Under the pieces are notes generated by a model. The model searched no databases and was not told where the DNA came from. It saw only the letters and a program-made list of their open reading frames with translations. Below are positions 10,852 through 59,865 of a stretch of 64,000 nt of DNA, in pieces; the stretch's first letter is position 1; every line of letters starts with the position of its first letter. Where the stretch lies: contig OZ024740.1 of the NCBI GenBank assembly GCA_964016885.1, positions 132,742,001 through 132,806,000 on the forward strand, written 5' to 3'. The position numbers and the translations under genes were made by a program. This DNA comes from Eledone cirrhosa. Lineage: Eukaryota.

Positions 10852-13800
10852 ATGACCTCACTCAGAATAGGCAGCATAAATACGCCTGGCTTGGGATCGT
10901 CATGGAGGCAGGGCCACCTGCTCAACGACCTCAGGTCACTAAACATAGATGTAGTGGCCATCAACGAGACCAGAATCTCCGAAGCACGGGCCTTCTTCGG
11001 CGACTACGATGTGTACGCATCTCCCAGCCGTCCGGGATCGGGGGAAGGAGTTGCTGTGCTTTTTAGGAGGGGTTTGGATCTCGCCATGCGGGCCATCTTC
11101 CTGGACTCAGAAGTTAAGTTGGTGGTGCTGGACGTGACCAGCGGAGACGGGAAAGCTTTCAGGCTAGACGCCGTCTATGCCTCGACAGGAGCAGGGCGGC
11201 CTGATTTCTTCCGGCGTCTGGAGACCTTTCTTGGAACGTCCCGCTCTTTAGTGTTAGTGGGCGACTGGAACGGGATCTTAGATGCACGCTGGGACCGTGT
11301 GGGATTAGCGGATTGGGGAGGAGGGTGCAAGAGTCTCACCAACCTGCTTAGGCATTTTGAACTATCTGACAGTTCGCATAGGGTCATCCAGATCATATCT
11401 AGATAGAGTATTTTGTAGGGAAATAGATAGGTCTAGCATAGGCTGTCCACAATTCAAGATAGTCAGCTACACGGACTACAAATTCAAGATCTGTTTGCTT
11501 GACTTAGATAGGCTTCATAGACGAGGACCCGGCTACTGGAAGCTAAACGGGTCCTTACCAGTTCACAAGGCCTACAGAGACCGGATACCGAACTAGTTAA
11601 GCGGGCGTTGACGGGGCCCATCGTCAAAAACAAGTAGTGGTTTGCTCTGAAAAGAGCAATTAGAATAGAGTCCATTAGGTTTAGTAAGGCTTTAGCAATA
11701 GAGAAAAATAGAGTAGTGAGAATTAGTTAGAAATTTAGACGAGGCGCTTAGCAAAGGCATCGCGACCGACGTACTTGCGGCGAAATTGGCCCGTGACCAA
11801 TTCTTCAATGCAAAGCACGAACTGCGTTGTCAGAGCTAGGGTGAGTGATCTCAGACCTCGAGGGGACGAAAGCCGTTCAATGGGCCCGAGTAGCGGAGGC
11901 GCGTCGTGGCAACAAAGCCACGATACGATCTTTGGTGGACCACGACGTGCGCATGCTACTCGATCCCGGTCAAATATGTGAAGCTTTTCAGCGACACTTC
12001 GCACAGCTGTTCGGGGGCAGCAGCGGGCCGGATCGAGGGATGGACTTTAGTGTCTACCTTGTCGGACTGCCGCGGCTTTCGCCCAGTGAGGCGGAGTGTT
12101 GCGAAAAGCCGATAATAGCCGCTGAAGTACGGGAGGCAATGACTGGCTGCACAAGGGGTAAATCGCCTGGTTTGGATGAACATTACGTACAGATGCAAGA
12201 TTTGTTCGGAGGCATCTTGGCGGACGTCTACTGCAACTGGCAACAGAAAGGGAGAATTCCCAGCTCTGCGAGCCGAGGAGCTGTGGCGCTGCTGAGAAAG
12301 TGTCCGAACAAGGGGGATAACATAGATAATTTCAGGCCCATAACTCTGCTAAACACAGAGTCAAGATTTTGGCCAAGGTGCTAGCAAAGAGATTGGCGCT
12401 TGTCGTTGGTGGTCTGGTGGGAGAGGCGCAGACGTGCGCCATTCCCAACAGATCCATCCACGATAACCTCCACCTCATGCGATACATCGTAGAGAGTGTA
12501 GCTAGGGAACCTGGCACGGGTGGATCCTTGCTCAATTTAGATCAGATGAAAGCTTTCGATAGGGTCGACCATCGTTACCTAGCGGCAGTCCTGAGGGCGA
12601 CAGGCTTTGGGCCCGTCTTCAGAGGCTGGATCGCTGCCATGCACAGCGACATCTGCTCTGTGGTGAGAGTGAACGGTCACCTTTCAGAACCGTTCAACAT
12701 ATTGCGCTCGGTCCGCCAAGGATGTCCCCTCTCGTCTCTCCTGTAGGTATTGACTCTCGAGACATTACTGCACAAACTGGAGACGTTGAGGGGCGTCCCG
12801 CGCGAACTAGGATGCGGAAGATCCGTGTCAGCATATGCGGACGATGTCACCGTAGTGGTGTCGAAGGCCGAACACATCGAGGCGATCGGCACTACACTAA
12901 GAGAATACGAAGCGGTGACAGGAGCAATGATCAACCAGGAAAAGTCAGTGGGCCTGCAGCTCGGCACCTGGAGAGGCAGGTCCATGCCGTCCAACAGCGT
13001 CGTCGTACGCTGGACGGACCGGTTAAATTGCTAGGGGTCTGGTTCGGTCTGGACCTCCATACGGACAAATACTGGGACGAGGTGACGAGCAGGGTGGCTT
13101 CTCTCACCCAGAAATGGGCCGAGAGGAAGCTATCCCCGATGGTCGAGCGGAGGTGGTGAATGCGTACGTCGCATCCGTCATCTACTACCGCCTGACCGTC
13201 GTACCTTGTCCTAAGCCCCGCCTGACTGCGCTGGAGCGTTTGCTCTTTCGCATTTTGTGGAAGGGACGCGCTCCGATGGTCAGGCGGTCCATATCGTGTC
13301 AACACTCGCTACGTGGTGGGCTGGGCATGCCGTGGCTGATGATGAGCAGACACGCGCTCACGCTACGACATCTCCACCTCTTCCTCGACGGTGATCAGGT
13401 GTGGTCGCCGTTTGCTAGACACGTATTTCCCAAGCTCGTCTCCTTGACGGAGCTGCAGTCCTGGGTCAAGCGAAGACCGAGAGGGAGCGCCTGGAGACTG
13501 GAATGTCTTCAGGCGCTCACAGCCCTCGACCAATCGGGCAATGTGATCGGTGGAAACTCCACCTTGGCGTTCTATAGGGGATTAGTGGAGGGGAAGAGCG
13601 ACGACGTACTTGGAGAAATTCTAGGCGTCGACGAAAATCAACTAGCCAATCTCTTCGGAAGGACTTTCGGGCCGGGGCCTATGGACAACTTCCAGAAATC
13701 CCTGGCCTGGCAGTGCTACCGGGGAGCTTTGCCAGTTCGGCATAAACTCTACAGGCATGGAGGTGCCGTCAGCCGGGCATGTCCGAGATGCGCGCAGGGC

Positions 13801-14196
13801 GACGAAAACGTCCTGCACGCACTCGTCCAGTGTCCGAGCATTGCTGACTTGTGGGTTTATGTCGAACACCTGCTGTCACGTGTAGGACGGATCCAGCTAT
13901 CAGCTGAGTCCATCGTGAGGATTGCCCCGCCCCCTTCCTTTAGCCGGGAAGGGCAGGCAGTTTTTATCTGTCTGGTGGCCATGGCGAAAGAGATAGTATC
14001 GTGGACACGTTTGAAAGGGCTGAAGACGAGCACTTACCTCTTCGGTGATGCCCTGATTAACTTTTTCAAATTTCATTTGAAAAGGAAAATCAGGGTAGAG
14101 AGGGAAATGCTCTCTTCCCAGCATTTTGTTGAAAGATGGGTGAGAGAGGCAAGTATGGCCCGAATGAATAGGCCTTCTCTGAGTCTGTGTCTGTAA
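10852..14196 (+). pseudogene. Tx1-like ORF2 of copy 2 (APE-RT-zinc motif), frameshifted
   Basis: SINTPGL, INET, VGDWN, FRPITLLN, DQMKAFD, RQGCPLS, AYADD, CPRCAQGDENVLHALVQC; stop at 14196. Confidence 0.9.
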
Positions 14197-14445
14197 ATTA
14201 AGGGTGGAAAACTGGGAGTGGGCACTTGCCCTGGTGGTCAGGACACTGTGGTCTTTTAATGGGCTTTCTCCAAAATGTCCTTCGGAAGTCTCCCCCATAT
14301 TGGGGAATTTTTCATTGTTTCTTTTTTTTTTGTTAGATCCTCTGTTTGTTTTTGTGTTTTTTTTACACGCAGAAATACCCATTTGTACCGTCCTGTATTG
14401 TCCTGTACAATCTTTAATGTCTAATTTGTGTAAAACCTTGTGGTT

Positions 14446-14451
14446 AATAAA
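14446..14451 (+). terminator. Polyadenylation signal of Tx1-like copy 2
   Basis: AATAAA six nt before the (att)n tract, at the end of a T-rich 3' UTR. Confidence 0.6.
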
Positions 14452-14456
14452 GAAAG

Positions 14457-14498
<42 letters not shown>

Positions 14499-14499
<1 letters not shown>

Positions 14500-14903
14500 T
14501 GAGTCTCAGGTATTGATGTTAGTTAACTGGAAAGTTTGTTGAAATGAATATCAAGCCACTACCTGCAGCCTCAGATATTCAGGACGTATCGGAGGGTTCT
14601 TGCTGTGCCCAGCAAGCATGCCTTTTGAAGCGTTCCAAAAAGCGTGAAGGGGCCAATTTTCTTTAACCATCACTGTAAACTTTTTGAGTTAGTTCCTAGT
14701 GCGCCTATGACAATCGGGATCACTTTGACTTCATGGCAGTTCCAAATCCTTTTTACCTCCCACTTTAAGTCCTGGTATCGGTTAATGTTCTCCCTCTCCT
14801 TCTCTTGCACTCTCGTGTCGAATGGGCAGGCCACATCCACAATCAGGCACGATCTTTTTTCTTTGTCCACAACCACCAGGTCAGGTCTATTGTCTTCCAG
14901 TTT
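14499..14903 (-). mobile_element. Short 3' fragment of R4/Dong family B (REL domain + 3' UTR)
   Basis: NRPDLVVVDKEKRSCLIVDVACPFD..ERENINRYQDL. Near-identical to 20033-20425. Bounded by (TTA)n and (TTC)n. Confidence 0.9.
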
Positions 14904-14928
14904 CTTCTTCTTCTTCTTCTTCTTCTTC

Positions 14929-14974
<46 letters not shown>

Positions 14975-15118
14975 AGTTGCATTTATCTTGCTTTATGTTC
15001 ATACGAGTTATCACCAAGTCACAACCAGTGACCTCAAGAGACAACAAGGTTTCGCCATGTTCAAGAAAGAACATACATATTCACACATGCATCTTTAGTG
15101 TTTAGACTTGTTATGTAC

Positions 15119-18100
15119 TTATATTGACAGAATGTTCCTTAGTATATGGGCAGTTCCCATTAGTACTATCTTTTGTATTTCTCCTATACGCGGGTTTCCT
15201 TGGATTTGCGATAAGTAATCATTAGACCCCTTAGGTATCATTCCCAGAGCGCCTACAACCACTGGTATTGTTTTAGTTCTCAATTTCCACATTTTTCCAA
15301 TTTCTATCTCCAGGTCCCTATACTTGCTCAATTTTTCAAATGTTTTTATAGATACATTCTGGTCTATTGGAACAGACATATCAATTAGCAGGCATACCGT
15401 CTTTTGAAAGTCTTTCAATATTATATCAGGATTGGCAGTATCGGTAGAGGGTCGGACGCCATGCTTTCCAGCATAGTTACGTCCCTTTACGATCTGAGTT
15501 CAAATCCCACCGAGGTTGACTTTGCCTTTCATCCTTACGGGGTCGATAAAATAAAGTACCAGTAATGAACTGGGAAATTGCTGGCCTTGTGCCTAAAGTA
15601 GAAACAAATATTATATCAGGTATGTTTGCATCTATTTTTCGGTCTGTTTGGATGCTAAAGTTCCACAAGTTCGAGATGTGATCTTTTTCAAGTATGGGAG
15701 GTGGTTGATGCTCCCACCAATTCTTTTGATGGGGCAGGTCAAAATGCTTACACATTATCCAATGTATGTATTGTGCAGCTCTGTCATGCCTGTTTAGGTA
15801 TTCGGTTGGAGCCATAGGACTGCACATTGAAATTATATGGTCAATGGTCTCTGGTTGTTTTTTGCATACACGGCATAATGGGCTCCACCCATTTTCTATT
15901 ATGTTGGCTTGGTAATTTTTTGTTGGCAGACACTGATCTTGTGCTGATATAATCAGTCGTTCAGTCTCCGATTTCAGTCCAGAGGATGCCAACCACTGAT
16001 GGGTTAAAGATTTGTCAACATCAGGATTGTTAGCTCGCTCTGGGTATTTTCCATACAGAGGCTTTTCTTGCCATTTCTTAGCCAGTTTCTGTAGCAGTTC
16101 TTTCTTTGCAGTTACTTTTACCTGCTTTGCTTTTTCTGTGATTTCTATTTCAGCAGTAAATGGGACTTCTGAAATTTGTAGTCCATTACTGTATCTTTGT
16201 GCATCTTTTGTAATGGAATATGATATTTTGATGCTTTCGTGTTTCAAAACGAGTTTGATCATCCAATCATGTGATTCCCTTAGATATGTAGATAATTCAA
16301 TTGTTGCAGTTTTCAACGCAATGTCTAACTGGATTAACCCACGTCCTCCTTCTTTCCTAGGGAGATATATTATATCTATATCTGCCTTAGGGTGATACAT
16401 TCTGTGCATGGTTAAGAATTTTCGAAATTTTGTATCGAGCCTACGGATCTCTGTGCTTGACCAGTTGATGACATTGTAACTGTAGGTTACTACTGGTATG
16501 GCAAGCGTGTTTATGGCATCGATCCTATTCCTTGCATTCAATTCCGTTCTTAAGATTGCTCTTACCCTGCGGTAACATTTCTTCCTTATCCTTTCCCTCA
16601 TTGTCGATTGCTTGATTCCGTCTCCTTCACAAACACCTAGATATTTGTAAGTTTTTCTTGATCATGTTCTCTTATCACGTTCCCCCGATCAAGATTAATG
16701 TCTGAACTCTTCAGCAGCTTTCCTCTGGTGAACATTGCTTTGGCGCATTTATCTAGTCCAAACTCCATTTTAATGTCATCACTGAACTGCTCCACAGTGG
16801 ATAATAGCCCTTGCAATTGTTCATCATTTTTTGCAAATAGTTTCAGGTCATCCATGTAGAACAGGTGATTAATGGTTTTGTCATAGACTTTATATCCATG
16901 TTTTGTTTCATTGAGCATTTTACTTAATGGTATAAGTGCGATGCTGAATAAAAGCGGTGATAAAGATTCACCCTGAAAAATTCCACAATTAATATTAACT
17001 TCTCCAGCTTCCAGTGATTTTGTTTCACTATTCAAAAGGAGTGTCGTTTTCCATGTCTTCATACTGAATGACAAAAACCTCCTGACAACGGGGGATATTT
17101 TGAAAATCTCTAAACATTTTTCAATCCAACTGTGTGGCAAACTATCAAATGCTTTTTTATAATCTATCCAAGCAATCGATAGATTTTTGTGTCTATTATG
17201 ACAATCTTCCAGTATCATTTTGTTAACCAGAAGCTGATCCTTACAGCCATATGAGCCTCGTTTACACCCTTTCTGCTCAATGGGAAATAGGTCATTTGTT
17301 ATCAGGTGGTCATATGTATATTCAGTTAGGACTGATGTTAAAATGTTATACATTGTGGTCAAGCAAGTTATCGGTCTGTAATTTTTGGGATTGTTTGTCT
17401 CATCATTCTTCGGAAGCAGCAATGTAATGCCGTTAACTAGCCATGATGGTATCTTTTCTGGCTCCTTAACTATTTCATTGTAAAGTTGGGCTAACAGCTC
17501 ATGAGACTCTGTGAAGGCATTTATCCAAAGTTTTGTATTTTGTCTTTTCCTGGGATTTCCATTTGCTGCTTTTTCTTAGAGCCAAGCGCAACTGTTCAAC
17601 TGTTATATTTTCCCATATTTGTTCCTCAAGGTGAGCTGTATCTTTCATTTGTCTGTCTATCCATGGGGCATGTATGTTATGAACTTTTTCTTCGGCCCAG
17701 ATCTTTTCCCAGAATTCTTGCACTTCCTCCTTGGGTGGTATTGATTTAGCAGTTATTGTTGACTTACCAATTTTTCTGTAGAAGTTTCTTTGGTTGTTTT
17801 GGAACATATTATTGTCCTTATAGAATCTAGATCGTTTTTCAAAGCGCCTTATACGAGCAGCTTTGGCCGACACTTTTTGCTTGATTATTTCTATCAGCAT
17901 GTCTATGTCACATGTTGATTTTATACTGTACTTTTTTTTCAATTTTCTAAGTTTAGTTTGTTTAACATGTTCACCTATTTTATAGTTTGTTAAAATTTCT
18001 ATGTCAGATCGGAGAAGGTTTATTTGGCGATTGATGTTCTCTTGCCAAGTAGATTTCTTGTGAGAATTCCTTTCTTTTTTCATCTTCACTCCACATAAGT

Positions 18101-18956
18101 GAGTGGTGACTTTAGCCGATGCATAATAGAGATGATTTAAATCAGTAATGTTTAGTTTGTTTGTGATGATAATGTTTTTGAGAATTATGTTAGTCTTGTG
18201 TATTAACTTTTGGTTCTGTTTGGAGTTCTGGATCTTAGGGAGGGTGTCTCGTTGCCCCATGTCAGATTCTTTCATTTTCATCCATTCGATCATAATTTCA
18301 TCCTTCAAGTTGGCAAGTTCATTCTCATTCATTTCTTTATCATTTACGATCTCATTATTTTCATTTTGAGTTTCATCCTGAGCATGCACTTCCTCCACTT
18401 TTTCGACCCTTTCTTTAATTTGTTCTGTTGCCAGTGATTCCGTCCCAACCCTGGGGTTCGAAGTGTTACAGTTTACCTCGTTTTCACTGACACATGTTTC
18501 ATTTTCCCTTCGCTGACTTTGTGCTAATAGCTTGATCTGATCAATTTCTATATCAGTTAGTAACATTTTTCTTACAATATTTCTTCGTATATTGGCTAGT
18601 TTGTTACTGTCAATATAGCCTCTGTTTTCGGGATGTTTCTTTTTCCAGTTGATATATGTCTGTTCTGTATTCGATGTATTTGATGGGTAGTACATGGCAG
18701 TGTAGAAAGCATCAAGGACTTCTTTATTATCTTCCCTTGACCATTTTTCTCTCTTTTTCTTTGGATTTCTTGGTGGTGAGCATGGAGGGCCAACAGTAGG
18801 AGTATTCCGGTTATGGGAGGTCTCCAGCTCCGAAGTGATGGGAAGGTTTGAACCATTAGCTGATTTTTCGACCCCAGTCTGGTTCCTCTCTGAGGGACGC
18901 GGCCCTTTTTTACCCGGGTGACGGCCGATCCGGTATGAGATTTTATCATTAGACAT
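15119..18956 (-). pseudogene. R4/Dong single ORF (N-terminal domain, RT, CCHC, REL endonuclease), broken by frameshifts near 17520 and 16640 and by a SINE
   Basis: [72 protein letters not shown]....C, RHD, PDII..LIDMS. Confidence 0.92.
15431..15606 (+). mobile_element. tRNA-derived SINE inserted into the R4 endonuclease domain
   Basis: 14-bp target-site duplication aatattatatcagg at 15417-15430 and 15607-15620. Confidence 0.95.
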
Positions 18957-19208
18957 TTACTTTATTTTGTCGCGTTTTCTCCTTATCCGCCAAGGGGTAA
19001 TCATTTCGTGTTACCACTTCTAGAACGAGTGTCAACCAAGACTAGAGGGGTCGTTCTCCCCTAGAGACACGGCTATTCCCCGCCGGCCGCCATCCCGGTA
19101 TTTCTTGGTCACGGGGTTTTCTTTTTGTTGTTTTTTTTAAAATTGTTATTATCATGAGTGGTTCCTTAATGTGAGCATTGCGTGGCTTAAGAATGAAATT
19201 ATTAATAT

Positions 19209-19255
19209 GTGTCTCCACTTCAGGCACAAGGCCAGCAATCACCCAGTGCATTACA
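19209..19255 (-). mobile_element. 3' fragment of the SINE
   Basis: aggcacaaggccagcaatcacccagtgcattac is the reverse complement of the SINE 3' body. Confidence 0.75.
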
Positions 19256-19261
19256 ATAATA

Positions 19262-19990
19262 TAATATACTTTTTGCTGTAGTTGCCTGTTATTGTTGTTG
19301 GCTATGTCGGTGGTGGTGCCGGGGCTTTTTATATTGTTGGTGAGGAAGGTGTGAGCCAGCAGCCCCATAGTTGTTGATGTTGACGTTTGGCCGGTGGCCA
19401 GGTCACTAAGTCAATCTATTTATATCTTTTGCTAGCCTCTCCCTTGTCTAGTGATACCGCCACCTTCCCCTTTCTCTCTCAAGTTAACAGGGGAATAGTG
19501 GTGGTAGCAATAAAGGAGTGGTGGCGGCGGCGATGGGATAGTGGTAGCAAGATGATGGATGGGGTGGTGGCGGCGGTGGCTTCGTGGTTAGTGGGTTTTG
19601 TGATATGTAGTATCTATGAGTTTGTGTTCGTATGTTTAATATATATTGTGTTGACATATTCCCGTAAAATTGGAATTAAACATTTTGTTAAAATTTGAGA
19701 CAATAATAATAGTAATTATTATTATCATGCCGGGATTGATGGTGGTGGTGGTGAAATTGCCGTTATCTGGCTATTATATTTAGTGTGATGGGATAGTTGG
19801 CGTATCAACTTTCTGGTGTTGGTGAAATTGCTGTTATTTGGCTGTTCTATATAGTGTAGACAGAGGGTGTTTTCTTCCATTTATAACCATTTTCTTTTTT
19901 TGAATACAAAATATATAATACAAAATTGAATATTTGAGCGATATAACAATATAATATGGATCCGAAATTTTATGGGACTTCATTCGGTGG
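19262..19990 (-). mobile_element. Possible 5' UTR/ORF1 N-terminal remnant of another LINE (Tx1-like composition)
   Basis: The minus strand is ACC/AAC-rich, like the ORF1 N-termini of the two Tx1 copies, and begins at a (TTA)n tract. No diagnostic motif. Confidence 0.3.
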
Positions 19991-20032
19991 ATTATTATTA
20001 TTATTATTATTATTATTACTGCTGTTATTACT

Positions 20033-21429
20033 CTTTGAGTCTCAGTCATTGATGTTAGTTAACTGGAAAGTTTGTTGAAATGAATATCAAGCCACTACCT
20101 GCAGCCTCAGATATTCAGGACGTATCGGAGGGTTCTTGCTGTTCCCAGCAAGCATGCCTTTTGAAGCGTGAAGGGGCCAATTTTCTTTAACCATCACTGT
20201 AAACTTTTTGAGTTAGTTCCTAGTGCGCCTATGACAATCGGGATCACTTTGACTTCATGGCAGTTCCAAATCCGTTTTACCTCCCACTTTAAGTCCTGGT
20301 ATCGGTTAATTTTCTCCCTCTCCTTCTCTTGCACTCTCGTGTCGAATGGGCAGGCCACATCCACAATCAGGCACGATCTTTTTTCTTTGTCCACAACCAC
20401 CAGGTCAGGTCTATTGTGTTCCAGTTTCTTTTCCTTCTGTAACCTAAAACCCCACAGCACCATCACCTGATCGTTTTCTATCACCGCCTCTGGCTTATGC
20501 TCATACCACTTCTCAGAATGTGGTAAATTGTTTACTTTGCATAGGTGCCAGTGGATCACCCTGACAATCACATCATGTCTCCAGCCCTTATAGTGAGTCT
20601 GGGCTAGGTGTTTACACTCGGATACAATGTGAGCCACAGTCTCCTCTCTCTCTCCACAGATCCTGCACTGTGGGCTAGCCTCCTCCTTGTAAATATGGTG
20701 TTTCAACCACTTCGTTTTGAGGGCTTGCTCCTGCGCAGCCATTAACATTCCTTCTGTAGCCTGTTTAAGGTCTCCTCTTTTCAACCAGTTCCATGTCTGT
20801 GGATCTCTACATTCAGTTTTCTCAAAGAAGGTACTATGAAGGGATTTTTTCCTGAAGACTGCTCTTTCTCCTTGTTGTTATTTCCTCCTTGGACATCCCC
20901 TTGCCTATTGTCCCCTCCTTCAGTACAGTTCTGAGCATTGGCTCCTTACTATCAGTCACGTATTTGTGTAGGTTGTTTTTCTCCATCTGAACACAGTCAT
21001 CTATACTGATAAGTCCTCTTCCAACTTCAGATCTCCTTAAGTAGAGTCTATCGACATCACTCCTCTTGTGGAACATGTTGTAGATAGTCAATAGCTTCCT
21101 AGTCTTCCTATCCATTTCTTTTTGTTCAGCAACATTCCATCTAAGAATTCCCGCACAGTATCTAATAATAGACACAGCTCGGGAATTTACTGCACTTATG
21201 GCATTCCTACTGTTCAGATGTGACTTTAATACGCTCCTTACTCTCCGAATGTATTCAGTTCTTATCAATTCCTTCATTTTTTTGTTCTTGATGTCATCAG
21301 CCTCCAGAACGCCCAAATACTTGTATCCTTCTTCAGAGTCAATTTCCTTTATCATCTCACCTGTTGGTACCTGGATTCCGTTACTTCTGCTCAACTTACC
21401 CCTCTTCATCACAATGACTCCACACTTAC

Positions 21430-21430
<1 letters not shown>
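20033..21430 (-). mobile_element. 5'-truncated R4/Dong family B copy (post-RT region, CCHC, REL, 3' UTR)
   Basis: SKCGVIVMKRGK, YKYLGVLE, LYLRRSEVGRGL, TEGMLMAAQEQAL, CRICGEREETVAHIVSEC, RHD, NRPDL. (TTA)n on both sides. Confidence 0.92.
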
Positions 21431-21461
<31 letters not shown>

Positions 21462-21463
<2 letters not shown>

Positions 21464-21570
21464 CAAATCCCACCGAGGTTGACTTTGCCTTTCATCCTTA
21501 CGGGGTCGATAAAATAAAGTACCAGTAATGCACTGGGTAATTGCTGGCCTTGTGCCTAAAGTAGAAACAG
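21462..21570 (+). mobile_element. 5'-truncated SINE in (TTA)n
   Basis: Starts inside the B box (tcaaatccc) and ends gtagaaacag(tta)n. Confidence 0.9.
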
Positions 21571-23624
21571 TTATTATTATTATTATTATTATAATTATTA
21601 TCGTTGTTGTTGTTGTTGTTGTTGTCTGTGTTGTCATGATGGTATATTACAATAACTTCTATTCTTGTTCGTGGTCATTTTGGTCATATTTATACGAAAA
21701 AAGATATCATCAAATTAATATAATCAAGCAGGAATATTGATATGATATGAGACACACAGGGGCATAGCGTATGTATATATAAACGTGTATATGTTTGTCT
21801 GTGTGGCTTATGGGGGTTGAGCTGTATAAAAGCTTGTCTTAAAACGTCCTAAATTGAAGACACGATTTTGTTTGAATTTTATATAATATCATTATTGATT
21901 TTTTTAAATATATTTCCTATTAAATCCATATTTAAGAGTGTGTATAATGTGCCTGCAACTGTGTGTGTGCAAAGTGTATTTTCATTCATCCATTCATATG
22001 AGACAAATTTAATGTATGAACAACAGAAATGTTAAAATTATACGCCTCACTATGAAAACATCTATAAATATAAATATGTTTTCTGGTTATACGCTTCCAA
22101 CAATGAACATTATAGGAAATGCTTAGGCATTTGTCACAGTGAGGTAAATGTTTACGGAAGTTAAGCTCATTTACTTTACCGCCCACGGAGGGAAAACATG
22201 TGCTGTCGTTATCCAAACTACACACAAACGGGATTTAGAATTAATTGAACCACCAAATTTTCATACACTGCATTCATGATTTCATAATGACGTGATTAAA
22301 TATATAACAAATACGTTCCGGAAATATTCATACACACACATTAAATACCGTCATACACATGTGTATACATACACCTACGTACATACATACATATCTATAA
22401 TCAATTACAAAAGTGGTTTACACTGATACTTAAGTTTGGTTGGGTTTACCACCAACTCATTCAGTCTGAGTGATGGAGTTATTTGCAGGAAGATTCATAA
22501 TTATGTAGGATATTTCTAAAGCTAAGAGTACAAAACTCTAAAACATCTCAATTAACTAAATTAAAATACTTATGGTGAAACTCTACGCATGTAATGGCGA
22601 TAAGTCTAATAAATAGGAGTAACATAGATGCAAGGGATGGCATGTAATATGGGTTAAATCGAATTTTATTCTGGCCAAGCCCATCTCCTGGGTAGGAAAT
22701 TATAGAGGTGTTGTGTTCAAATTTATCGTTGTGGTAAGCTGGGGGTCAGGAGATAAAAGTAATGTGGGTGTGGGTAGTGCTTGTGGGTGGGTAGAAGAGA
22801 ATAGGAAGGGGATGGGGCTTAATGGTCATAGGATAATCGTGGAGAGATTGAGAGGTAAGAATATGTACCGAAGAGACGTAGAAGTTGGAGGAGTACTTTT
22901 AAGAAAAGTATGAATTAAAAAGTGGATCATATAGAAATAAATAAGTATGTTGAGGAGTGAATAGGATGAAATAAAATAAGACAGGATCAAGTGAAATTTA
23001 AGTGTTTAGAAATATATAACTAAGTGGATAGCATGGACGGGTGACATGCGGTAGGGTGTGTGTACTATACGTATGCTTACTGCATGCACACCAACACATA
23101 TACGTATACCGAGGAATTTTAATAATATTACATAAAAATACATGAATAAGCATATCAATTAATACTATAAAGAAAAAATATATGTTAGTATATAAATGAG
23201 TAGCTTACATTCATAGAAAACAGACACTTTACCACAAGTTTATTTTCTACGTGTATATTGACGAGATTATTATTAATTTCTAAGCCCTTAAATTTTACTC
23301 CAGCTTTTTTATATTCTATGTCATCCTATTTACTCATCCTATTAACTCACCTATTTATTAAACTCTTTAGCCATTTGCCCATTTATTTTTATATAACCAC
23401 TTTTTTTTTATTTTTTATTTAAATACTCAAACTTCTAAGCTGTGTCTGTACACCTCTCCTTCTACTCCCCTCCTATCCACTAACTACACCTACCCTCACC
23501 CATATTACTTGAACTGATACACTCAATGCTGTAGCTCCCTACTTCCTCCGTCAGCCCAGCTTACGGTAATGATAAATTGAAGCACAGCTCTAAGACTAAC
23601 GACTTCCTGGTGCCGCGGTCGGGG

Positions 23625-23683: not shown

Positions 23684-23733
<50 letters not shown>

Positions 23734-23781
23734 TATGTATACGTACATACATATATGTATACAGACGTACATTAGTATGTA

Positions 23782-23828
<47 letters not shown>

Positions 23829-24370
23829 GCACACATATATATATTTACGTATGGATTCACCGAACATTTATTATAATGCTCGGTGTGTTTGTAAACAAAC
23901 ATCCCGAATTAAGCCGTACAGCGTCTAGCAACCATCGTTGCTAATTTGTTCAACGATAGCTAATAAGCTTGAAACTAGTACAGCGTTCCTTTGTCAGTGT
24001 TGAACAAATGAGCAACGATGGTTGCTAGACACTGTACGGCTTAATTCGGGATGTTTGTTTACAAACACACAAAGCGTTATAATAAATGTTCGGTGAATCC
24101 ATACGAACATATAGATATGTGTGCATGTATGTATATATATATATATATACATACTACTGTACGTCTGTACACATATATGTATGTATACTTATATTTAAGT
24201 AACAGCCGTACTAAGAGTGAGAAATGAAATTTCGTTTCATTTTTTCCGTTTATCGTTTTCGGTACCCCGACCGATTAACTCACTTGATATGCAATTTAGG
24301 CTGCTCAGCCGTTAATATGCATAAGGACAGTATATACTTTCAGGCATTCAACCATCTGGCAGGAAAGTAT

Positions 24371-24413
24371 ACGTTGCTAACGATAGCTAATAAGCTTGAA
24401 ACTAGTAGCGCGT
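24371..24413 (+). ncRNA. Minimal type I hammerhead ribozyme, mutated core (CUAACGA)
   Basis: acgttg-ctaacga-tagct aata agctt-gaaa-ctag-ta-gcgcgt. Confidence 0.6.
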
Positions 24414-24558
24414 TCCTTTGTCAGAGTTGAACAAATGAGAAACGATGGTTGCTAGACATTGTACGGCTTAATTCGGGATGTTTGTTTACAAACACACCGA
24501 GCATTATAATAAATGTTTGGTGAATCCATACGTATATATATATATATATGTGTGCATG

Positions 24559-24605
<47 letters not shown>

Positions 24606-24829
24606 TACTGTACGCCTGTATACATATATGTATGTACGTATACATACTTATATTTAAGTAACAGCCGTACTAAGAGTGAGAAATGAAATTTCGTTTCATT
24701 TTTTCCGTTTATTGTTTTCGGTACCCCGGCCGATTAACTCACTTGATATGCAAATTAGGCTGCTCAGCCGTCAATATGGATAAGGACAGTATATACTTTC
24801 AGACATTCAACCATCTAGCAGGAAGGTAT

Positions 24830-24872
24830 ACGTTGCTGACGATAGCTAATAAGCTTGCAACTAGTACAGCGT
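24830..24872 (+). ncRNA. Minimal type I hammerhead ribozyme, GAAA mutated to GCAA
   Basis: acgttg-ctgacga-tagct aata agctt-gcaa-ctag-ta-cagcgt. Confidence 0.65.
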
Positions 24873-25017
24873 TCCTTTGTCAGTGTTGAACAAATGATCA
24901 ACGATGGTTGCTAGACATTGTACGGCTTAATTCGGAATTTTTGTTTACAAACACACCGAGCTTTTCAATAAATGTTCGGTGAATCCATACGTACATATAT
25001 ATATGTGTGCATGTATG

Positions 25018-25053
<36 letters not shown>

Positions 25054-25169
25054 CATACTACTGTACATCTGTATACATATATGTATGTACGTATACATAC
25101 TTATATTTAAGTAACAACCGTACTAAGAGTGAGAAATGAAATTTGGTTTCATTTTCTACGTTTATATAT

Positions 25170-26008
25170 ACATATATAAATAAAATAAAATAAAATAAAT
25201 AAGTCAAATGTTTAAAATGTGGCTTCGTTTATTACTGCTATATATATTTCGGTGACAGCCATCTTTGACTGTGACCTCTTCAGGCAGTCCGAATTAGTGT
25301 GGTAGGGACGAGTACACATGTTGTTGAGGTGTATAACTTTCTCAATACTCTGATATGCCCAGTTCCTGGTTGGGTTGTTATTTCACTGAGAAACTGGAAT
25401 CATATGAATTTAAACAAACGAATTTCAACGTCGAAGGTCCTCTTCTCTCATTGGTCAGTTGTTAGAACATTCCTCAGTCAAAAATCTATAGAAATTCGTT
25501 CTGAGGCAAGCCAATCTGTAGTTGTTGTTCTTGTTAATGTTAGGTACATCTGACCTCTATTCCTATGTTCGTAGTGGTTTTGTTGTTGGAGTCAGCTAAA
25601 AAAAAGTGATAAAGTAGTAAAAGGAATAAGATGGTAAAGGAACAAAATAAAATAAAATAATCGAATAAAATGTGTATTTGTCTTATACCCATCTCAATGT
25701 TATAAAGATGTGTAAGGTCAAACTTCCCATTGGTCAGTGTTGATAGCATTCCTCAGTCCAAAGTCTATAGAAATTATTTCTGGGGTGAGGCTCTGGGGTG
25801 AAGCTCCTTGTGTTAAGTACATCTGACCTCTACCCTTATTTTGGTAGTGTTGTTGGTGTTGTGGTCAGCTTATGTCTTGCTGCTGCTGACAATTTAGAAG
25901 TATCTGTGTGTGTGTGAAGAAACACACACACAGATACTTCTAAATTGTCAGCAGCACGAATTACTCCGTACAGAATTTCAGCAACCATCGTCACCTTTTT
26001 GTTCAATA

Positions 26009-46824: not shown

Positions 46825-46869
46825 TTATTTTGTCTGATGAGGACGTACATCCGAAATATGTATAATAAA
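46825..46869 (+). ncRNA. Hammerhead-like motif with intact core and decayed stem I, inside a TA-flanked ~460-bp insert (46460-46925)
   Basis: ctgatga-gga cgtaca tcc-gaaa-tatg-ta. Confidence 0.55.
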
Positions 46870-48969
46870 TTGTAATTGATCAAAAGAACATCTATTTTAT
46901 TAATACTTATATTTTAATATGTAAATGTATATATATATATGCATGTGTTTCTACGTGAGTGTGATAAGTTTCCAGTTAACATTGCTTCATTTTATTTAAC
47001 TTAGATCAACACTTGTTCCGTTCACCTATGTATGAAAAATAATCACGACCTTAGATTACCATTGAAATGCAGATATCTACACCATAACATACTCAAACAG
47101 CTTTTTTTAGAATATACTGTAACAGTGTCCTTTACAGACTGAAAACCTAAGCTTTTGATTATTTGTTTAAAAATCATAATTTCTATATTTGTCGGCAATT
47201 AGGCGTGTATGCGTGCGTGTATGATTGTGTCAGTTCACGCGTTTTTGTATTTGTTTTAACGCCTACTATTATAGTGCTGATATAATACTTGTTACAAAAA
47301 TTAATAAACTCTACAAAGCTGTAAAACTGTAAGACTTGGAAAGGCATTGATGGTTTGTGTTAAGCAAATATATATAAACAGATAAATGCGGCTTGGGAAA
47401 AGGAAATACATGTCCATATATAACTCTGAGATTTTTTCCTATCTCATACTATTACGAGACATAGTTTGTAAGTCTTTTGAACTGAATCGAAACCAATCAT
47501 TTTCATACTATAAAACAAGTAAAATACAGGAAAACGTCCACCAACATATATTACTGTTATTATGTTTTAATTCGCTCTCTATACATATAAGATTATTCTA
47601 GAAGACTCCTGCTCCCAAATGAGTAATTTAAACCTATGTTTTATTAACATTTTGATTTATTAGACTGGAATTATCGCTGGGACCTACGAAGCAACGAAGT
47701 GAGAAATGAAAAAAAAATAATTTCCAAGAACACTCAGAGTGCAACGTTTTAATTATCCCATTGTGACTATTAAAAGTAATGATTCTAATTTAACAAGAAA
47801 TATATTACTTCGATCAATTGTTTGTATTGTGTGCATTTCTAGAGAACGCAGGGAAATAGTTAAAATATTAGATTGCTGGAATAAATATTCTCCCAGCACT
47901 TGGTTCTCCACCTCTATGTAGAGTTTTCAATTCCCACCGAAGATAATCCTATTTCTCATTACGTAGATTGATAGAAAGATAAATAACCATTTAAACCCAA
48001 TTGTTTCAGTCAGCTAAAATCCGTTAAAATATATAGTTTTCACCAATGAAAATACCCATTGATGGTAGTCATAAAGTATTTATTAGAATAGAAATTGAGA
48101 AGGCAGGAGGCTAATTGTTTGTTAGTTCGAATACTATTAAGTGTATTTGTGTTTTATTTATTATTATCAAACGCTTATGGTTTGTTTCAATTTAAGAATT
48201 CTTTATATTTTGAGGACTCCTAGACGTAAGACTATATAACATTTTGCATTATATTTTGAGCACTATATTACTTACTACACTATTCGAATAGCAGAATAAT
48301 TAATACTAAATTGACTGCATATTTCCTGATATTGTGTTAGAGACAATAAAGAGATCTATTTATTTAGACGCACTACTTGTATATTATACCAGTTTACCCT
48401 AATCATTTAAAATATATCATTCCAATAATACTGTATGTGGGCGTATCCAACACAGACTGAAATACATTTCAGATGTAAGACTATCTCAATTTGTACTAAA
48501 CTCTAAATTGTAGAACTGGATATTTATTATTCTGAAAGTACAAACATTTCCGATAAACATCAAAGGGCATATTATTATGCTTTTCCCACTTAATCTTTTG
48601 AGAGTGGTATGGTAGCCAGGCGCATATCTCACCAATCTTAATATAGAGTTCGGAGGAACTTTGTATTTCGTTGGATTTGTTTAAAAGAAAAGCAGTTCCA
48701 GAGATCAATCAGAGACCATCAGGTTTTGTTCTACTGTTTAAACACGCATATATACAAGACGAGTTAAAAATATATGTTTTCTAATGTGCGAGATATGATT
48801 GAAAGTGAAAATATTCACCTAACAAATGCGCCGTTGCCCATGGAGTCATGAAATTCTGAATCAATAATTTCCTTTCGAAGTTTATTGTTTTTATTGCAGT
48901 TTGGACGAAATCGCGATTTGATGTTGCTAATGATACATTTGTATTCATGACACTAATAACATACATAAC

Positions 48970-49222: not shown

Positions 49223-49308
<86 letters not shown>

Positions 49309-49310
<2 letters not shown>

Positions 49311-49422
49311 TTGAAATAAAATGAAAACGAAATTTCATTTCTCACTCTTAGTATGGCACTTACTTAAATGTAAGTATGTATGTATACGTACATACATATA
49401 TGTATACAGACGTACAGTAGCA

Positions 49423-49492
<70 letters not shown>

Positions 49493-49750
49493 TTTAGCGG
49501 GCGCTTATTATAACGCCGCTTTGTTCGTTTGTACACAAACTGAACAACCTGAATTTATGCCATACGGTGTTAAGGCAACCACGTCACCTTTTTGTTCAAC
49601 ACTGACACATGAACGATGTACTAGTTTCAAGCTTGTTAGCTATCATCAGCACCGTATACCCATCTGCCAGATAGTTGACCGTTCGAAAGTATATACTTTC
49701 CTTATGAAAATTAACGGCTAAGCAGCCTAATTTGCATATTGAGTGAGTTA
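49309..49750 (-). mobile_element. Single diverged monomer of the hammerhead repeat (locus B)
   Basis: Homologous to the units of 23728-25162. (TA)n on both sides. Confidence 0.85.
49613..49655 (-). ncRNA. Minimal type I hammerhead ribozyme, fully intact
   Basis: Minus strand: acggtg-ctgatga-tagct aaca agctt-gaaa-ctag-ta-catcgt. 6-bp stem I, GUA triplet. Confidence 0.85.
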
Positions 49751-49770
49751 ATATATATATATATATATAT

Positions 49771-52258
49771 AATTTCAGGTTATCGATAATGTAGTGATAA
49801 TATATTGTTACGTTAGAGATGAACAGCGTACGTGTAGGTTTGCTCAACGAGTATAAATTATATTCCGGAGAAAATGTAGAAAAGATGAACATAAAATGAA
49901 AGTGCATTTAAAAAAAAAAAAGGAATTTATTAGGTATTGACATATATTTCTGTAACAGACGGAATACCTATGTATCGCTGCTTGCGTAATCATATAATGT
50001 TAGCAAGTATTCGATAGCAAATGTATAATCAGTTGTCACTTCTTCAGAGATTTTGGATAAATTGGATAAAATCAGAAAAATTGAAGTATTTATATTAGTA
50101 ATAGAGGAAGAAGAGAGGGGATAGTATATGACAGATGGTAATTCAATTTACTGCTAAACAAGTATATAAAGGGTTTCTAATGAGAATACAATGAGTAAAT
50201 GGTTTATTTTATCTAAATAAGAATTTTTGGGATGCCTATTTTAATCTATACTTGACCAATTGAACAATGAACTCAGAATGGCAAGGTCATTTGGTGTAGT
50301 AGTATTAATTATAAAGTGTCAATTAAGGAAGGGGGAGATTTCGACTGCTACTGAATAACATCAATGCTAGTAGCCAGCTGGTATATGCATTAGGAAATTG
50401 AAATAAGAAATCTCCTTTTATCTATAGCAGTTTATATTAAATGGTAAACAATAGAAGAGTTGATAGAATTAAGACTAATAGAGAATGTTAATATGTATTT
50501 TGACAATCAAACGGAGATGGAGACAGGCGTTCAATCCTAGTAGTATTTGTAATATGAAAATGTAGATTTTAAGCGATGGTTACAGTATAACGATCGCTCT
50601 ATTCTGTTATTTAATAAAATGTTTTTGGATTTCATAATACAAAATAATTCCATCTTACATAATTTACCAAATTCCTGTCCGTGGGTATATGGAGGGGCAG
50701 CAGCTATTATATCCCATTTTAGGTTAAATTGTTGGTAATTTTCACGCAGCTGCCAAGCCTTGTCTGCGAGTGTTGTTACATAACGCTGGTTTTCATGTTT
50801 TATCGAGTAACGATGTCTATAAAGGCGTGATTTTAAGGAGGTGGCTGTAGATCCCACATAGTACCACTTCTGTCTATCCGATTCGATAGTACATTTGTAT
50901 ATTATGTTGCGTTCAAGACACTGATTGTTCAACGGATACATTCCTGGTTGGACACAGTTACAGTTATAATTTTGCGTTGTTGTATTGGCATGGATGGGTT
51001 GATGAGGTTGCTTAGGTAGGACGGGATGTTGTTTGTTGTTTTGTGATGTTATAGCTAATGTTTTACGTGTATTGTTATGTGTTGGAAGGCGTTTATACAA
51101 CCGTTTTGCGTTAAGCTTTTTTATATGTTGTTCAATATTAGGGGCGGTTGAATATGAAAGTCGAATAGTGTTAGGGTTTAAGATTTTATTATATTTATGT
51201 GATGTTGGAAAGTGTTTTTTAACTAATCGAAAGAATTGTGAGGGTAGATTGGTTTTAATAGAGTTGTTATAGACCGGGTTGTACCATATATACTCTTTAC
51301 ATCGCCTTCTGTTTGGTGGTGTGCGACTATCATTGTGTCTATTGCGGTAGTGTATGTATGGTGGTGATTCTGTGCTATTTCTACCCCTATGGGATTTATT
51401 TTGGGTGATTTGGTGATCTACGACTATATACTCTATATTATCTAGGTCTCCGGCCTTCCTAAGTGCATCATCATAATATTCGGCATGTTCTTTGAAGGTT
51501 TGTTGGTTGGACGACAGGCGGGAGATTCTAAGAGAAACATCTCTAGGGATGGATTTAATTATAGAGAGTGGATGGTTAGAACTCGTATTTACATATTTAA
51601 GGTTCTGATTTAGTTTATGGAACGGTTTAATCGTTTCTGTATTGAGATTCAAAGTAACATCAAGGAAATTGACCTCTTTGAGGTTATATTCAAATGTAAT
51701 ATTTAATCCTAGTTCCTTAAAAAGCTTTCTGATATTTTTATGCATCCTTTCTAAATTCTGGTTATTCATATGCTTAACTAATAGGAGCGCATCGTCACGG
51801 TAGATTCCACCGTGGAGATCCTTGACTTTTTCTTGTAGTCTGTGGGTGATATAAATTCCCACAAGATCTGTTACTTCTGCCGAATCATTGGAACCCATAG
51901 TAATATCAAAATTAGAAGGTCTATCTTTGCGAACCCAGTAGCTATCATCAAATTTAACAATAGTTTACCTCGCTTCCATAATAATTTTAATTTCAGCATC
52001 CGTAATGTCGGAATTAGCCTTAGCGAACGAAAGAGCTTCATGTAGAGTATCAGGTGAAATTGAGGAATAATATTCATCAATAACAAACTGAATAAATTTT
52101 GATTTTTTTCTTATTAGTAATGTTATTAAACCATCTTATTGCTTCATGAGTGTTACCCCATAGTTTAATTTCTACTTTAGCCTTAACTTTGGGGATAATT
52201 CTGTCTAGTATATATTTGCTAATTTTGCCTATATCAGATTTAGAGGGGCATATAAGTC
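49771..52258 (-). mobile_element. 5'-truncated Naiad-like Penelope retroelement with long 3' region, in (TA)n
   Basis: RT-GIY-YIG coding region. Both ends abut (TA)n. Decayed hammerhead-like motif at ~49935-50053. Confidence 0.85.
50537..52258 (-). pseudogene. PLE RT + GIY-YIG endonuclease (453-aa uninterrupted C-terminal part)
   Basis: [83 protein letters not shown]. Confidence 0.9.
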
Positions 52259-52260
52259 TA

Positions 52261-52318
<58 letters not shown>

Positions 52319-52345: not shown

Positions 52346-55925
<3,580 letters not shown>

Positions 55926-57401: not shown

Positions 57402-57739
57402 TAAACGGAACAAATGAAACGAAATTTCATTTCCCACTCTTAGTACGGCTGTTACTTAAATATAAGTATGTATACGTACATACATATATGTATACATACG
57501 TACAGTAGTATGTATATATATATACATACATGCACACATATATATATGTACGTATGGATTCACCGAACATTTATTATAATGCTCGGCTTGTGTGTAAACA
57601 AACATCCCATATTAAGCCGTAGTGTCTAGCAACCATCGGCCGATTAACCCACTCGATATGCAAAGTGGGCTACTCAGCCGTTAATATGCGTAAGTAAAGT
57701 ATATACTTTCAGACGTTCAATCATCTGGCAGGAAGGTAT

Positions 57740-57782
57740 ACGTTGCTGACGATAGCTAATAAGCTTGAAACAAGTACAGCGT
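57740..57782 (+). ncRNA. Minimal type I hammerhead, intact core
   Basis: acgttg-ctgacga-tagct aata agctt-gaaa-caag-ta-cagcgt. Confidence 0.75.
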
Positions 57783-58172
57783 TCGTTTGTCAGTGTTGAA
57801 CAAACATGCAACGATGATTGATAGACACTACGGCTTAATACTGGATGTTTGTTTACAAACACACCGCGCATTATAATAAATGTTCGGTGAATCCATACGT
57901 ACATATATATATATATATGTGTGCATGTATGTATATATATATACATACTACTGTATGTCTGTATACATATATGTATGTACGTATACATACTTATATTTAA
58001 GTAATAGCCCTACTAAGAGTGGGAAATGAAATTTGGTTTCATTTTTCCGTTTATCGTTTTCGGTGCACCCGGCCGATTAACCCACTCGATATGAAAATTG
58101 GGCTACTCAGCCGTTAATATGTATAAGGAAAGTATATTCTTTCAGACGTTCAATCATCTGGCAGGAAGGTAT

Positions 58173-58215
58173 ACGTTGCTGACGATAGCTAATAAGCTTG
58201 AAACGATTACAGCGT
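58173..58215 (+). ncRNA. Minimal type I hammerhead, core intact, stem III altered
   Basis: acgttg-ctgacga-tagct aata agctt-gaaa-cgat-ta-cagcgt. Confidence 0.65.
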
Positions 58216-58330
58216 TCCTTTGTCAGTGTTGAACAAAAGGGCAACGATGGTTGTTAAACTCTGTAGGGGTTAATTCGGGATATTTTGTTTACAAACAAAC
58301 TGAGCATTATAATAAATGTTCGTTAAATCC

Positions 58331-59786
58331 AGTTTTTAATGGTTTAATGCTAGACTCTCTTTTTTCTCGTTTTGTGGGAGGCTAAGCATGTGGATGTAGC
58401 TTTATGGAGGCAACTAGAGAATAATTCACTTTTGTTGTGAATTAGGGTCTCATAGTTATAAATAATCAACCGGGTCTCCATTGTACAGAGCGAGCAGTTA
58501 TTTGATATACTAGAATTGCGGTGAATTCCACAGTTACGAAGTTTTGTCCAAAGAATGGAGTATTTTAAATGTTTCTCTTTTAATGACCATATGAGCCGTG
58601 ATAAAGACGTGGATGATTTCTTCTTTGAGTTCGAGAATGAGCATTTATGGTTCGAAAATCTGGTTTTAAAAGTGGAAGAAGTGGATCATATCTAGTTGTA
58701 AGTATTGTGATCAGTTTTTACGGTGCATTTATAAACGAAATTACTATCTAAACATTTATTTTGCAAAGGGCAATCAGTTTTATTTCTACAATTACATTTT
58801 GGTTTAGTATCATTTATGTTAACTCTATTATTAAGATCAGTATGTTGGTTTTGTTTTAGGATTTTCTTGTTTAATTTGGCAATGATTTGGGCCATGTTAG
58901 AGGTTGTAGAATAGGAGAATTTAACGGTATGTCTGTTAAAAATGGAATGGTATTTATGTTGAGTAGGGAAAGAGGTGTCAAGAACGTTAAAGAATAATTT
59001 TGCAATTGGTGTTTTAACCATATGATTGATTTAGTTCTATTTCGTATCCTCAATTTATTTGGCATATGGGTGTTTGAGTTATAATTATTATTAGAGTTTC
59101 GTTTATATATGTTATTATTTTTTTTTAGTATAATATTTGGATTATTATTATCTACATATTCTATATTATTCGTATACCCTGCTCTTTTTAACGCATGGTT
59201 GTAGTATTCAGCTTTTTCATCGAATATATCTTTATTGGCTGATATTTTATTAATTCGCTTTTGCACACTATTAACTATAGCTTTTTTTTTTACAGATTCC
59301 GGGTGATTTGAATGGTTACGAACATAGTTTAAGTTTTCATTGGGCTTATGTTAAGGGTAATAGAAGCCAGTGTTTAAGTTAAAAGTAACGTCTAGAAATT
59401 AACTATTTTGGTACGATTTTCAACTTCTTATTTAAGGTCGTACATTTTAATGAATTCTATTATACCTTTCTTTACTCTATTTAGTTCAATAGTGTTGTGT
59501 TTGACCACCATAAATAAAACGTCATCCCTATATAAACCATCGGTAATCTCAGGCAGTGTTCTATTTATCATGTTTAATATGAAAATTCCCAGAAGATCTG
59601 TGATTTGCACGGAATCGGATGCACCCATTGTGATATCAAAGTTTATATCTCTATCTGATCGTGTCCAGTATTCGTTATTGAAGTTAATAAGAGTTATTCT
59701 GGCTGTTAGTATTATATTGATTTCATCTGTGGTTATATCAGTATGCTTATAATCATATGGCAGGGCCTTATTGAATCTTGTTTAAC

Positions 59787-59787: not shown

Positions 59788-59865
<78 letters not shown>

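Follow-up and report, generated by a model that had tools for sequence, protein, structure and literature searches.

The repeat at positions 23730-25164 of the window, the whole 64-kb stretch of DNA analyzed here, is best explained, at a probability of about 0.7, as one decayed insertion of a repeat that is non-coding, occurs in many copies, and contains a type I hammerhead motif; this repeat is likely of the non-autonomous, non-LTR retrozyme kind and was likely copied into (TA)n microsatellites by a Penelope-like element (PLE). As stated in the initial annotation, the unit recurs near 49 and 57-58 kb; the three loci in the window are A (23730-25164), B (49308-49752), and C (57402-58331; Table 1), and the hammerhead-to-hammerhead spacings of 427, 459, and 433 nt agree with the unit length of 427-459 nt given before. 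The GC content of the unit is 34-36%. Its description as lacking a real ORF also stands: locus A contains no stop-to-stop frame of 100 aa, and its 11 ATG frames of at least 40 aa (52-77 aa) consist mostly of translated TA tract; the variable internal TA-rich tracts reported earlier are likewise present. The proposed head-to-tail arrangement holds for 2.7 units at locus A and 1.6 units at locus C, but not for the inverted arms that precede the sense units at both loci; the outer end of the arm at locus A falls inside the unit, and its inner end is joined to the sense part by an overlap of 2-3 nt. Outside the TA tracts, the pieces of locus A diverge from each other by 4.5-7.9% and from locus C by 6-14%, and monomer B differs from all other unit copies by 19-26%. 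No tRNA gene was found in the 64-kb window.

Table 1. Features of the repeat unit and of the adjoining Penelope-like ORFs in the window (positions in nt)
Feature	Position	Strand	Remarks
(TA)n tract, left flank of locus A	23684-23729		likely target
Inverted, 5'-truncated unit arm, locus A	23730-23954	-	225 nt; outer end ~60 nt short of common 3' end
Unit A1	23952-24252	+	5'-truncated within hammerhead core
Unit A2	24253-24711	+	459 nt
A2 hammerhead	24371-24413	+	core G5>A; stem I broken beside cleavage site; H17 at 24407
Internal TA tract of A2	24533-24604		others at ~24105-24150 and 24995-25057
Predicted 10-bp hairpin just 5' of common 3' end	24680-24702, also 25133-25155	+	from circular folds
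Unit A3	24712-25164	+	stops at common 3' end, then (TA)n
A3 hammerhead	24830-24872	+	core A13>C; H17 at 24866
B-like unit fragment, 50 nt	25957-26006	-	at the 5' end of the PLE-like element at 25165-25956; abuts (TA)n
Monomer B, near-full, second subfamily	49308-49752	-	(TA)n at both flanks; ~78-80% identical to A/C
B hammerhead	49613-49655	-	intact core, 6-bp stem I, 4-bp stem II over U-U, palindromic stem III
Second 5'-truncated Hydra-clade PLE	49771-52261	-	ORF ~50537-52259; 475-aa open frame 50537-51964
Inverted arm of locus C	57402-57638	-	outer end is the common 3' end, against (TA)n
Unit C1	57637-58053	+
C1 hammerhead	57740-57782	+	intact core; palindrome lost
Unit C2	58054-58331	+	ends where ORF junction begins
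C2 hammerhead	58173-58215	+	intact core; mismatch in stem III
Broken, 5'-truncated Hydra-clade PLE ORF	58350-59785	-	RT, CxCx5C linker, GIY-YIG region; stops and frameshifts

The hammerhead core is flanked by a stem I of 6 bp with a predicted outer extension, by a stem II in which 4 bp rest on a U-U pair, and by a stem III that is a six-base palindrome; the consensus proposed earlier corresponds to the majority line across six aligned sites. The claim that every unit has a hammerhead was not confirmed: the core nucleotides are intact at only three of the six sites and at none of the three in locus A, where the A1 hammerhead is cut by the inversion junction; the palindromic stem III is kept along with the core at one site of six, that of monomer B. 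Self-cleavage by locus A is therefore not to be expected, since all of its cores are mutated, and the locus itself reads as an ordinary dead copy. With a strict hammerhead descriptor, the window gave five hits, of which two are unit copies, and each of 20 shuffles gave zero or one. Since the Rfam hammerhead models miss the motif both at the gathering score and up to E 10, a covariance model was built on 28 hammerheads from unrelated Hydra-clade PLE loci (a non-redundant pick of 29 stretches from 42, less the mis-cut L031); by its rough E-values, the hammerheads of B (E 0.0017) and C1 (0.0027) rank first and second in the 64 kb and that of C2 (0.14) fourth, followed by A3 (0.93) and A2 (3.4), with A1 absent from the matches. 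Rfam miRNA matches were dismissed as artefacts of the TA tracts, and no exact match to the hammerhead occurred in the metagenome and viral contigs searched. Pair counts across five copies, too thin to count, gave one or two double changes (80 of 500 shuffles, or 18 of 500 with a corrected outer-helix register); in sequencing reads, the palindromic stem III letters at 58205 and 58207 are carried by 94-99.9%. The folds of circular monomers reach z-scores of -4.5 to -7.1 (none of 60 shuffles as low), an effect for which the TA tract accounts in large part; the non-TA parts lie ~2.4 and 0.7 SD below shuffles, and single-copy folds are weak (z +0.76 to -2.56).

Private changes in unit copies amount to 4.1% per site (55/1329), which translates into a 42% chance of a hit within the 13 core bases; the core damage at locus A thus appears compatible with what neutral decay yields, and a selective loss of hammerhead activity in arrays is not supported, since neutral decay is enough. 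If the octopus rate (distance 0.09 at 25 million years; PMC13282606) applies, the insertion at locus A would be roughly ten million years old.

The insertion anatomy points to PLE-type copying. One end of the unit is identical to the base at all three loci, where it abuts (TA)n directly 3' of the predicted 10-bp hairpin, 277-311 nt past the cleavage site; the 5' ends vary among loci, and inverted 5'-truncated arms occur at two of the three (A and C). PLE insertions are described as ending at a fixed 3' position, being truncated at the 5' end, carrying an inverted 5' copy, and targeting (TA)n (10.1101/2021.04.23.441226); all of these marks are found here, with a 5' truncation that varies among copies. 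The earlier proposal of (TA)n as the target is thus borne out at every locus, although with (TA)n at both flanks any target-site duplication is unreadable; its companion, that monomers defined by cleavage are what integrates, is not supported, the insertion ends lying ~280-310 nt past the cleavage site. The idea that the tandem arrays arose when the unit inserted into its own internal TA tract was rejected, since the junctions lie elsewhere than in that tract. Two independent antisense unit pieces end at the same few bases (23945-23954 and 26001-26006), ~20 nt past the outer hammerhead stem, perhaps at a pause site of the reverse transcriptase; the starts of monomer B (49752) and C1 (57637) differ by no more than ~6 nt and follow the tandem junction by 15-21 nt, in a zone that could possibly be a transcription start.

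Helentron-associated families are characterized by an internal microsatellite and a 3' hairpin. The internal microsatellite of the unit, its short tandem arrays, and its predicted 3' hairpin followed by a T run could therefore also be read as those of a non-autonomous, Helentron-associated element that moves by rolling-circle replication at the DNA level and contains a hammerhead-like stretch by chance. We consider this reading highly improbable: the variable 5' truncation with inverted arms, the conservation of the hammerhead in two subfamilies, and the adjoining PLE ORFs do not fit; no fixed 5' end and no pair of subterminal inverted repeats was seen in the unit; and random 5' ends and inversions are already suggested by the reads.

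Both Hydra-clade ORF remnants in the window adjoin a unit copy. The remnant abutting locus C, which the initial annotation had missed, is antisense to the adjoining units C1 and C2 and ends at a (TA)n tract (59790-59859); its junction with the unit at 58331 has a 4-nt overlap and no TA gap, and its stop codon lies 19 nt away. Monomer B sits in the 3' (TA)n flank of the second Hydra-clade PLE, 790 nt from the ORF with (TA)n between them, and the two are probably separate insertions. The 770-nt 3' region of this second element (49771-50537, minus strand) is longer than the usual Hydra UTR; neither the strict descriptor nor the covariance model detected a hammerhead in it. By their motifs and (TA)n target, the ORF remnants appear to belong to the Hydra clade, whose families insert in (TA)n (10.1101/2021.04.23.441226). 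Among 51 ORF homologues, DKT/DKS was found in 19 of the 21 long ones and CxCx5C in 18 of 21; the CxCx5C linker is located at 58695-59030 and is decayed in the 50537 frame, and both remnants have lost the DKT region through truncation. Naiad was rejected as the identity of these ORFs, given a C-terminal endonuclease with the CxCx5C linker. Pfam recognizes neither the Hydra ORFs nor four of their homologues, and none of 18 candidates turned out to be a longer relative of the 112-aa ORF piece. The host is an animal and plausibly an octopod: the single named homologue (P0043, 47%) comes from Octopus sinensis, and other repeats in the window resemble octopus SINE-like repeats. A check of the host with an RTE-type reverse transcriptase gave 24 matches, none of them named.

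In one alternative, the unit is simply the 3' UTR or pseudo-LTR of a Hydra-clade PLE that is itself autonomous; the loci would then be 5'-truncated copies of this PLE, and locus C would be a copy with an inverted internal segment of 695 nt. For comparison, 79 Hydra loci were collected from metagenome contigs, 50 of them with at least 250 nt after the ORF; a sense hammerhead occurs at 34 of these 50, at a distance from the ORF end of 67-357 nt (median 135 nt; all 42 found), and an antisense hammerhead at two, in both cases as part of another element on the far side of a TA tract. If 57637-58331 were flipped, the hammerhead would come to lie ~130-150 nt downstream of the ORF end, close to the Hydra median, and it is because of this typical distance that the alternative is retained, as an unlikely one; the proximity of the ORF stop to the junction, the U-U pair that 18 of the 42 Hydra hammerheads have at the foot of stem II, and the enrichment of 3' ends that 5' truncation produces agree with it as well. 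The sequences as they stand are at odds with it: the hammerhead adjoining 58331 is antisense to the ORF, whereas all 24 Hydra rows of a published table are sense except one inverted copy (PMC8557442, supplement); a sense hammerhead 67-357 nt after the ORF end occurs at neither ORF, monomer B being separated from its neighbor by the (TA)n tract; and 4 nt lie between A15.1 and U16.1 in the unit, compared to 6-8 nt in 42 of 42 Hydra hammerheads. A search against the 79 Hydra loci did not connect the unit with the 3' UTR of a helper, giving one match of 19 nt (E 0.083), which is a point against the preferred reading.

Read depth weighs in the same direction. Of 17 sequencing runs, four (from three studies) were placed on 57860-59785 at 80% likeness, and the hammerhead bins exceed the depth of the ORF 402-, 272-, 309-, and 122-fold; even the lowest unit bin lies 15- to 93-fold above the 3' 390 nt of the ORF. 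These ratios are rough, since part of the data are RAD libraries with AATT-like cut sites, the rest being contigs of unspecified library type, and since the reference ORF is an old copy matched at 80% likeness. In the two RAD runs, 0.17-0.18% of all letters fall on 325 nt of the unit; with even sampling, which RAD libraries do not ensure, this would be equivalent to ~5,000-10,000 copies per Gb. At 58331, 6625 and 6536 reads continue into the TA tract of the unit, and position 58353 is covered by 31 and 28. The unit's own 3' hairpin letters precede position 58042 in 2326 and 1782 reads and in 30 and 3 contigs, which indicates that the head-to-tail junction is common; farther out, agreement is low in the reads (0.59-0.61) and reaches 0.82-0.93 in the contigs. 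The tail of the B-type subfamily reaches a similar abundance (9548 and 9767 reads). Among the joints listed, 11 of 15 connect opposite strands, at different places and in seven cases in both individuals (X15 and X16), and none of the 15 links the ORF end to the unit start. A second organism (organism B, run X4, 50 contigs) carries the unit, with the tails of both subfamilies, in a comparable ratio to the ORF family, and the family may therefore predate a species split.

Taken together, the excess depth, the orientation, and the stem III spacing argue that the unit does not behave today as the UTR of the adjoining ORF; the possibility that it is merely the terminal repeat of an autonomous PLE, which the initial annotation had raised against its own proposal, is answered in the negative by read depth as far as the adjoining ORF family is concerned. 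The unit may well have descended from such a PLE UTR nevertheless; the alternative concerns its present autonomy. The ORF junction at 58331 could most simply have arisen by microhomology priming of the second strand inside an older Hydra copy that lost its 3' UTR. Two Hydra elements of the comparison set (L038 and L079) were inserted tail-to-tail across one (TA)n tract, a pile-up at shared targets.

Array haplotypes constrain how such a unit is copied. A 2-nt deletion and one base are common to C1 and the inverted arm of locus C but absent from the post-cleavage part of C2; the deletion occurs as a variant across the genome (3806 of 6941 reads), and the haplotype switches within ~110 nt that include the cleavage site. 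At locus A, one base is common to A2 and A3 and absent from A1, and seven columns separate A2/A3 from C1/C2. Private changes are more frequent in the post-cleavage part of C2 (11/119 vs. 27/644, p 0.035); the comparison before and after the cleavage site within C2 gave p 0.077. Copying of a single monomeric circle would be expected to give clonal arrays, which these are not. Since the deletion occurs genome-wide and is shared by C1 and the arm but absent from C2, one monomeric circle cannot explain locus C, and the simple monomeric-circle copying proposed earlier is contradicted at 57-58 kb by the mixing of C1 and C2 haplotypes. A jump at the cleavage site at locus C is only compatible with this pattern and is not demonstrated by it.

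Such array-specific variants, the seven columns in particular, would also be expected if PLEs had mobilized monomers or uncleaved RNAs and the tandems had grown at the DNA level by unequal crossover and conversion, with a vestigial hammerhead and no circular RNA. The dead cores of locus A and their neutral-compatible decay are in keeping with this scenario, and Li et al. (10.64898/2026.07.22.740005) proposed such a route for satellite growth. We regard it as improbable: the same head-to-tail junction recurs in three of three cases here and is common in reads, the inverted arms share variants with their own arrays as fits one insertion event, and two subfamilies that are ~20% apart both retain the core and stems.

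Under the preferred reading of a PLE-copied retrozyme, integration at a fixed site other than the cleavage site, combined with copies that run through the hammerhead, leaves three templates: a circle primed internally, an uncleaved multimer, or jumps between cleaved monomers. The circle and the multimer are equally plausible, each at somewhat less than even odds, and jumps are rather doubtful. For the helper PLE, the evidence leans slightly towards the Hydra clade, and another (TA)n-targeting clade is a serious candidate at just below even odds. The intact arrays would be transcribed as multimers, in which neighboring hammerheads may pair via the palindromic stem III and cleave after GUA, releasing monomers of 430-460 nt that are perhaps closed by a host ligase; these steps are modeled on the axolotl and mussel retrozymes (PMC7229834) and on the dimer model of hammerhead cleavage (PMC4209133). 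The PLE endonuclease would then nick (TA)n, the 3' end of the target would prime at a fixed internal site past the predicted hairpin, the reverse transcriptase would copy across the hammerhead for 1 to 2.7 units, and the second target strand would prime by microhomology to yield the inverted arm. A more specific and quite unlikely version treats locus C as preserving the retrozyme life cycle in fossil form: the reverse transcriptase of a Hydra-clade element would have been primed on a self-cleaved 3' fragment, consisting of the post-cleavage part of C2 and the antisense ORF, would have switched to a monomeric circle by a jump at the cleavage site, and would then have gone around that circle. 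If true, genomic DNA would document cleavage in vivo, reverse transcription across cleavage sites, and the PLE clade that drives a retrozyme.

The window contains further hammerhead-bearing elements. A second, apparently non-coding PLE-like element (25165-25956, minus strand) lies tail-to-tail with locus A; it contains a hammerhead at 25239-25283, an internal repeat with a 279-nt period, and a 76-nt palindrome (25881-25956), and 15 nt of its hammerhead recur in the one at 63363. The latter (sense, 63363-63397) belongs to a PLE of another clade at 61426-63400, with RT pieces at 61426-61890 (minus strand) and a GIY-YIG frame at 62234-62998 (plus strand; Pfam E 0.0009, below the cut-off); this PLE is a possible alternative helper. 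Additional hammerhead-like motifs on the plus strand, at 46827-46871 (model E 0.014) and at 54610-54673 (E 0.19, ~200 nt before a 1-kb TA tract), are probably the 3' ends of other PLE families. Broken LINE ORFs occupy 13027-21646, with RVT_1 at 16637-17575 and zf-RVT in three frames.

Metazoan non-LTR retrozymes are described as non-coding tandem units of 150-450 bp with a GC content below 45%, a type I hammerhead in each unit, and thousands of copies (PMC7229834; 10.64898/2026.07.22.740005). The unit resembles them in length (427-459 nt, at the upper edge), GC content, tandem arrangement, type I hammerhead, high copy number, occurrence as monomers to multimers, and the presence of PLEs in the same genome; its copy number is independent of the ORF, at 122- to 402-fold over it. 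If the host is a mollusc, the nearest described retrozyme by phylum is the mussel family of 350-390 bp. The retrozyme reading of the initial annotation is thus supported in its non-coding tandem unit, type I hammerhead with a short palindromic stem III, (TA)n target, and PLE mobilization, but not in the single monomeric circle at locus C. Li et al. (10.64898/2026.07.22.740005) call a retrozyme array 'active' if two consecutive units have complete hammerheads; locus A has no intact hammerhead among three, and locus C has two intact cores with a stem III mismatch in C2, which bars that label for locus A but not family membership. The same authors observed cleavage in one of nine predicted retrozyme dimers, and retrozymes are now proposed to be non-autonomous PLE derivatives (10.64898/2026.07.22.740005); mobilization of animal retrozymes by PLEs via circular RNA is itself a hypothesis based on co-occurrence and pLTR homology (10.64898/2026.07.22.740005; PMC7229834).

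Cleavage and circles were shown for described retrozymes and are predicted for the unit, which also differs from them by its internal TA tract and by displaying PLE-like insertion anatomy itself, with a fixed 3' end at (TA)n and inverted arms, and the words 'inverted' and 'microsatellite' are absent from the main text of PMC7229834. Our literature search, largely of open-access papers and their main texts, found no report of a cephalopod retrozyme, and the main text of a 2026 paper on Octopus vulgaris repeats contains no occurrence of 'hammerhead' or 'ribozyme'. If the host is an octopod, the unit would extend retrozymes to the cephalopods, in a family that displays PLE insertion marks directly and a fixed priming site distinct from where the hammerhead would cleave. 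With two subfamilies, diagnostic variants, thousands of copies, and this fixed priming site, haplotype switches within arrays can distinguish circle, multimer, and jump; genome data alone suffice for that test, making the family a useful test case of retrozyme movement.

Hydra-clade PLEs, including Hydra-1_Obim (Craig et al., 2021, PMC8557442), share with the unit the (TA)n target and the U-U at the base of stem II, and also partial tandems and inverted 5'-truncated copies (PMC8557442); the unit departs from them in lacking an ORF, in its shorter palindromic stem III, and in running antisense to the ORF at 58331. The hammerhead of Hydra-1_Obim is a different one, and its protein, compared by eye, is clearly different too. 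The sizes of the unit's helices (6, 4, and 1-2 bp, with a palindromic loop) match those of the 'canonical' tandem-repeat hammerhead of PMC4209133. The axolotl hammerhead HHR_Amex1 has a single A-U pair and a palindromic tetraloop, as in the unit, and HHR_Amex2 the same U-U at the base of stem II (PMC7229834); both of these, and newt satellite hammerheads, are described as weak as monomers and efficient as dimers (PMC7229834). The unit joins the features of Amex1 and Amex2 in one motif, a comparison of design features, and on the sequence criteria that can be tested it would be placed with the animal non-LTR retrozymes.
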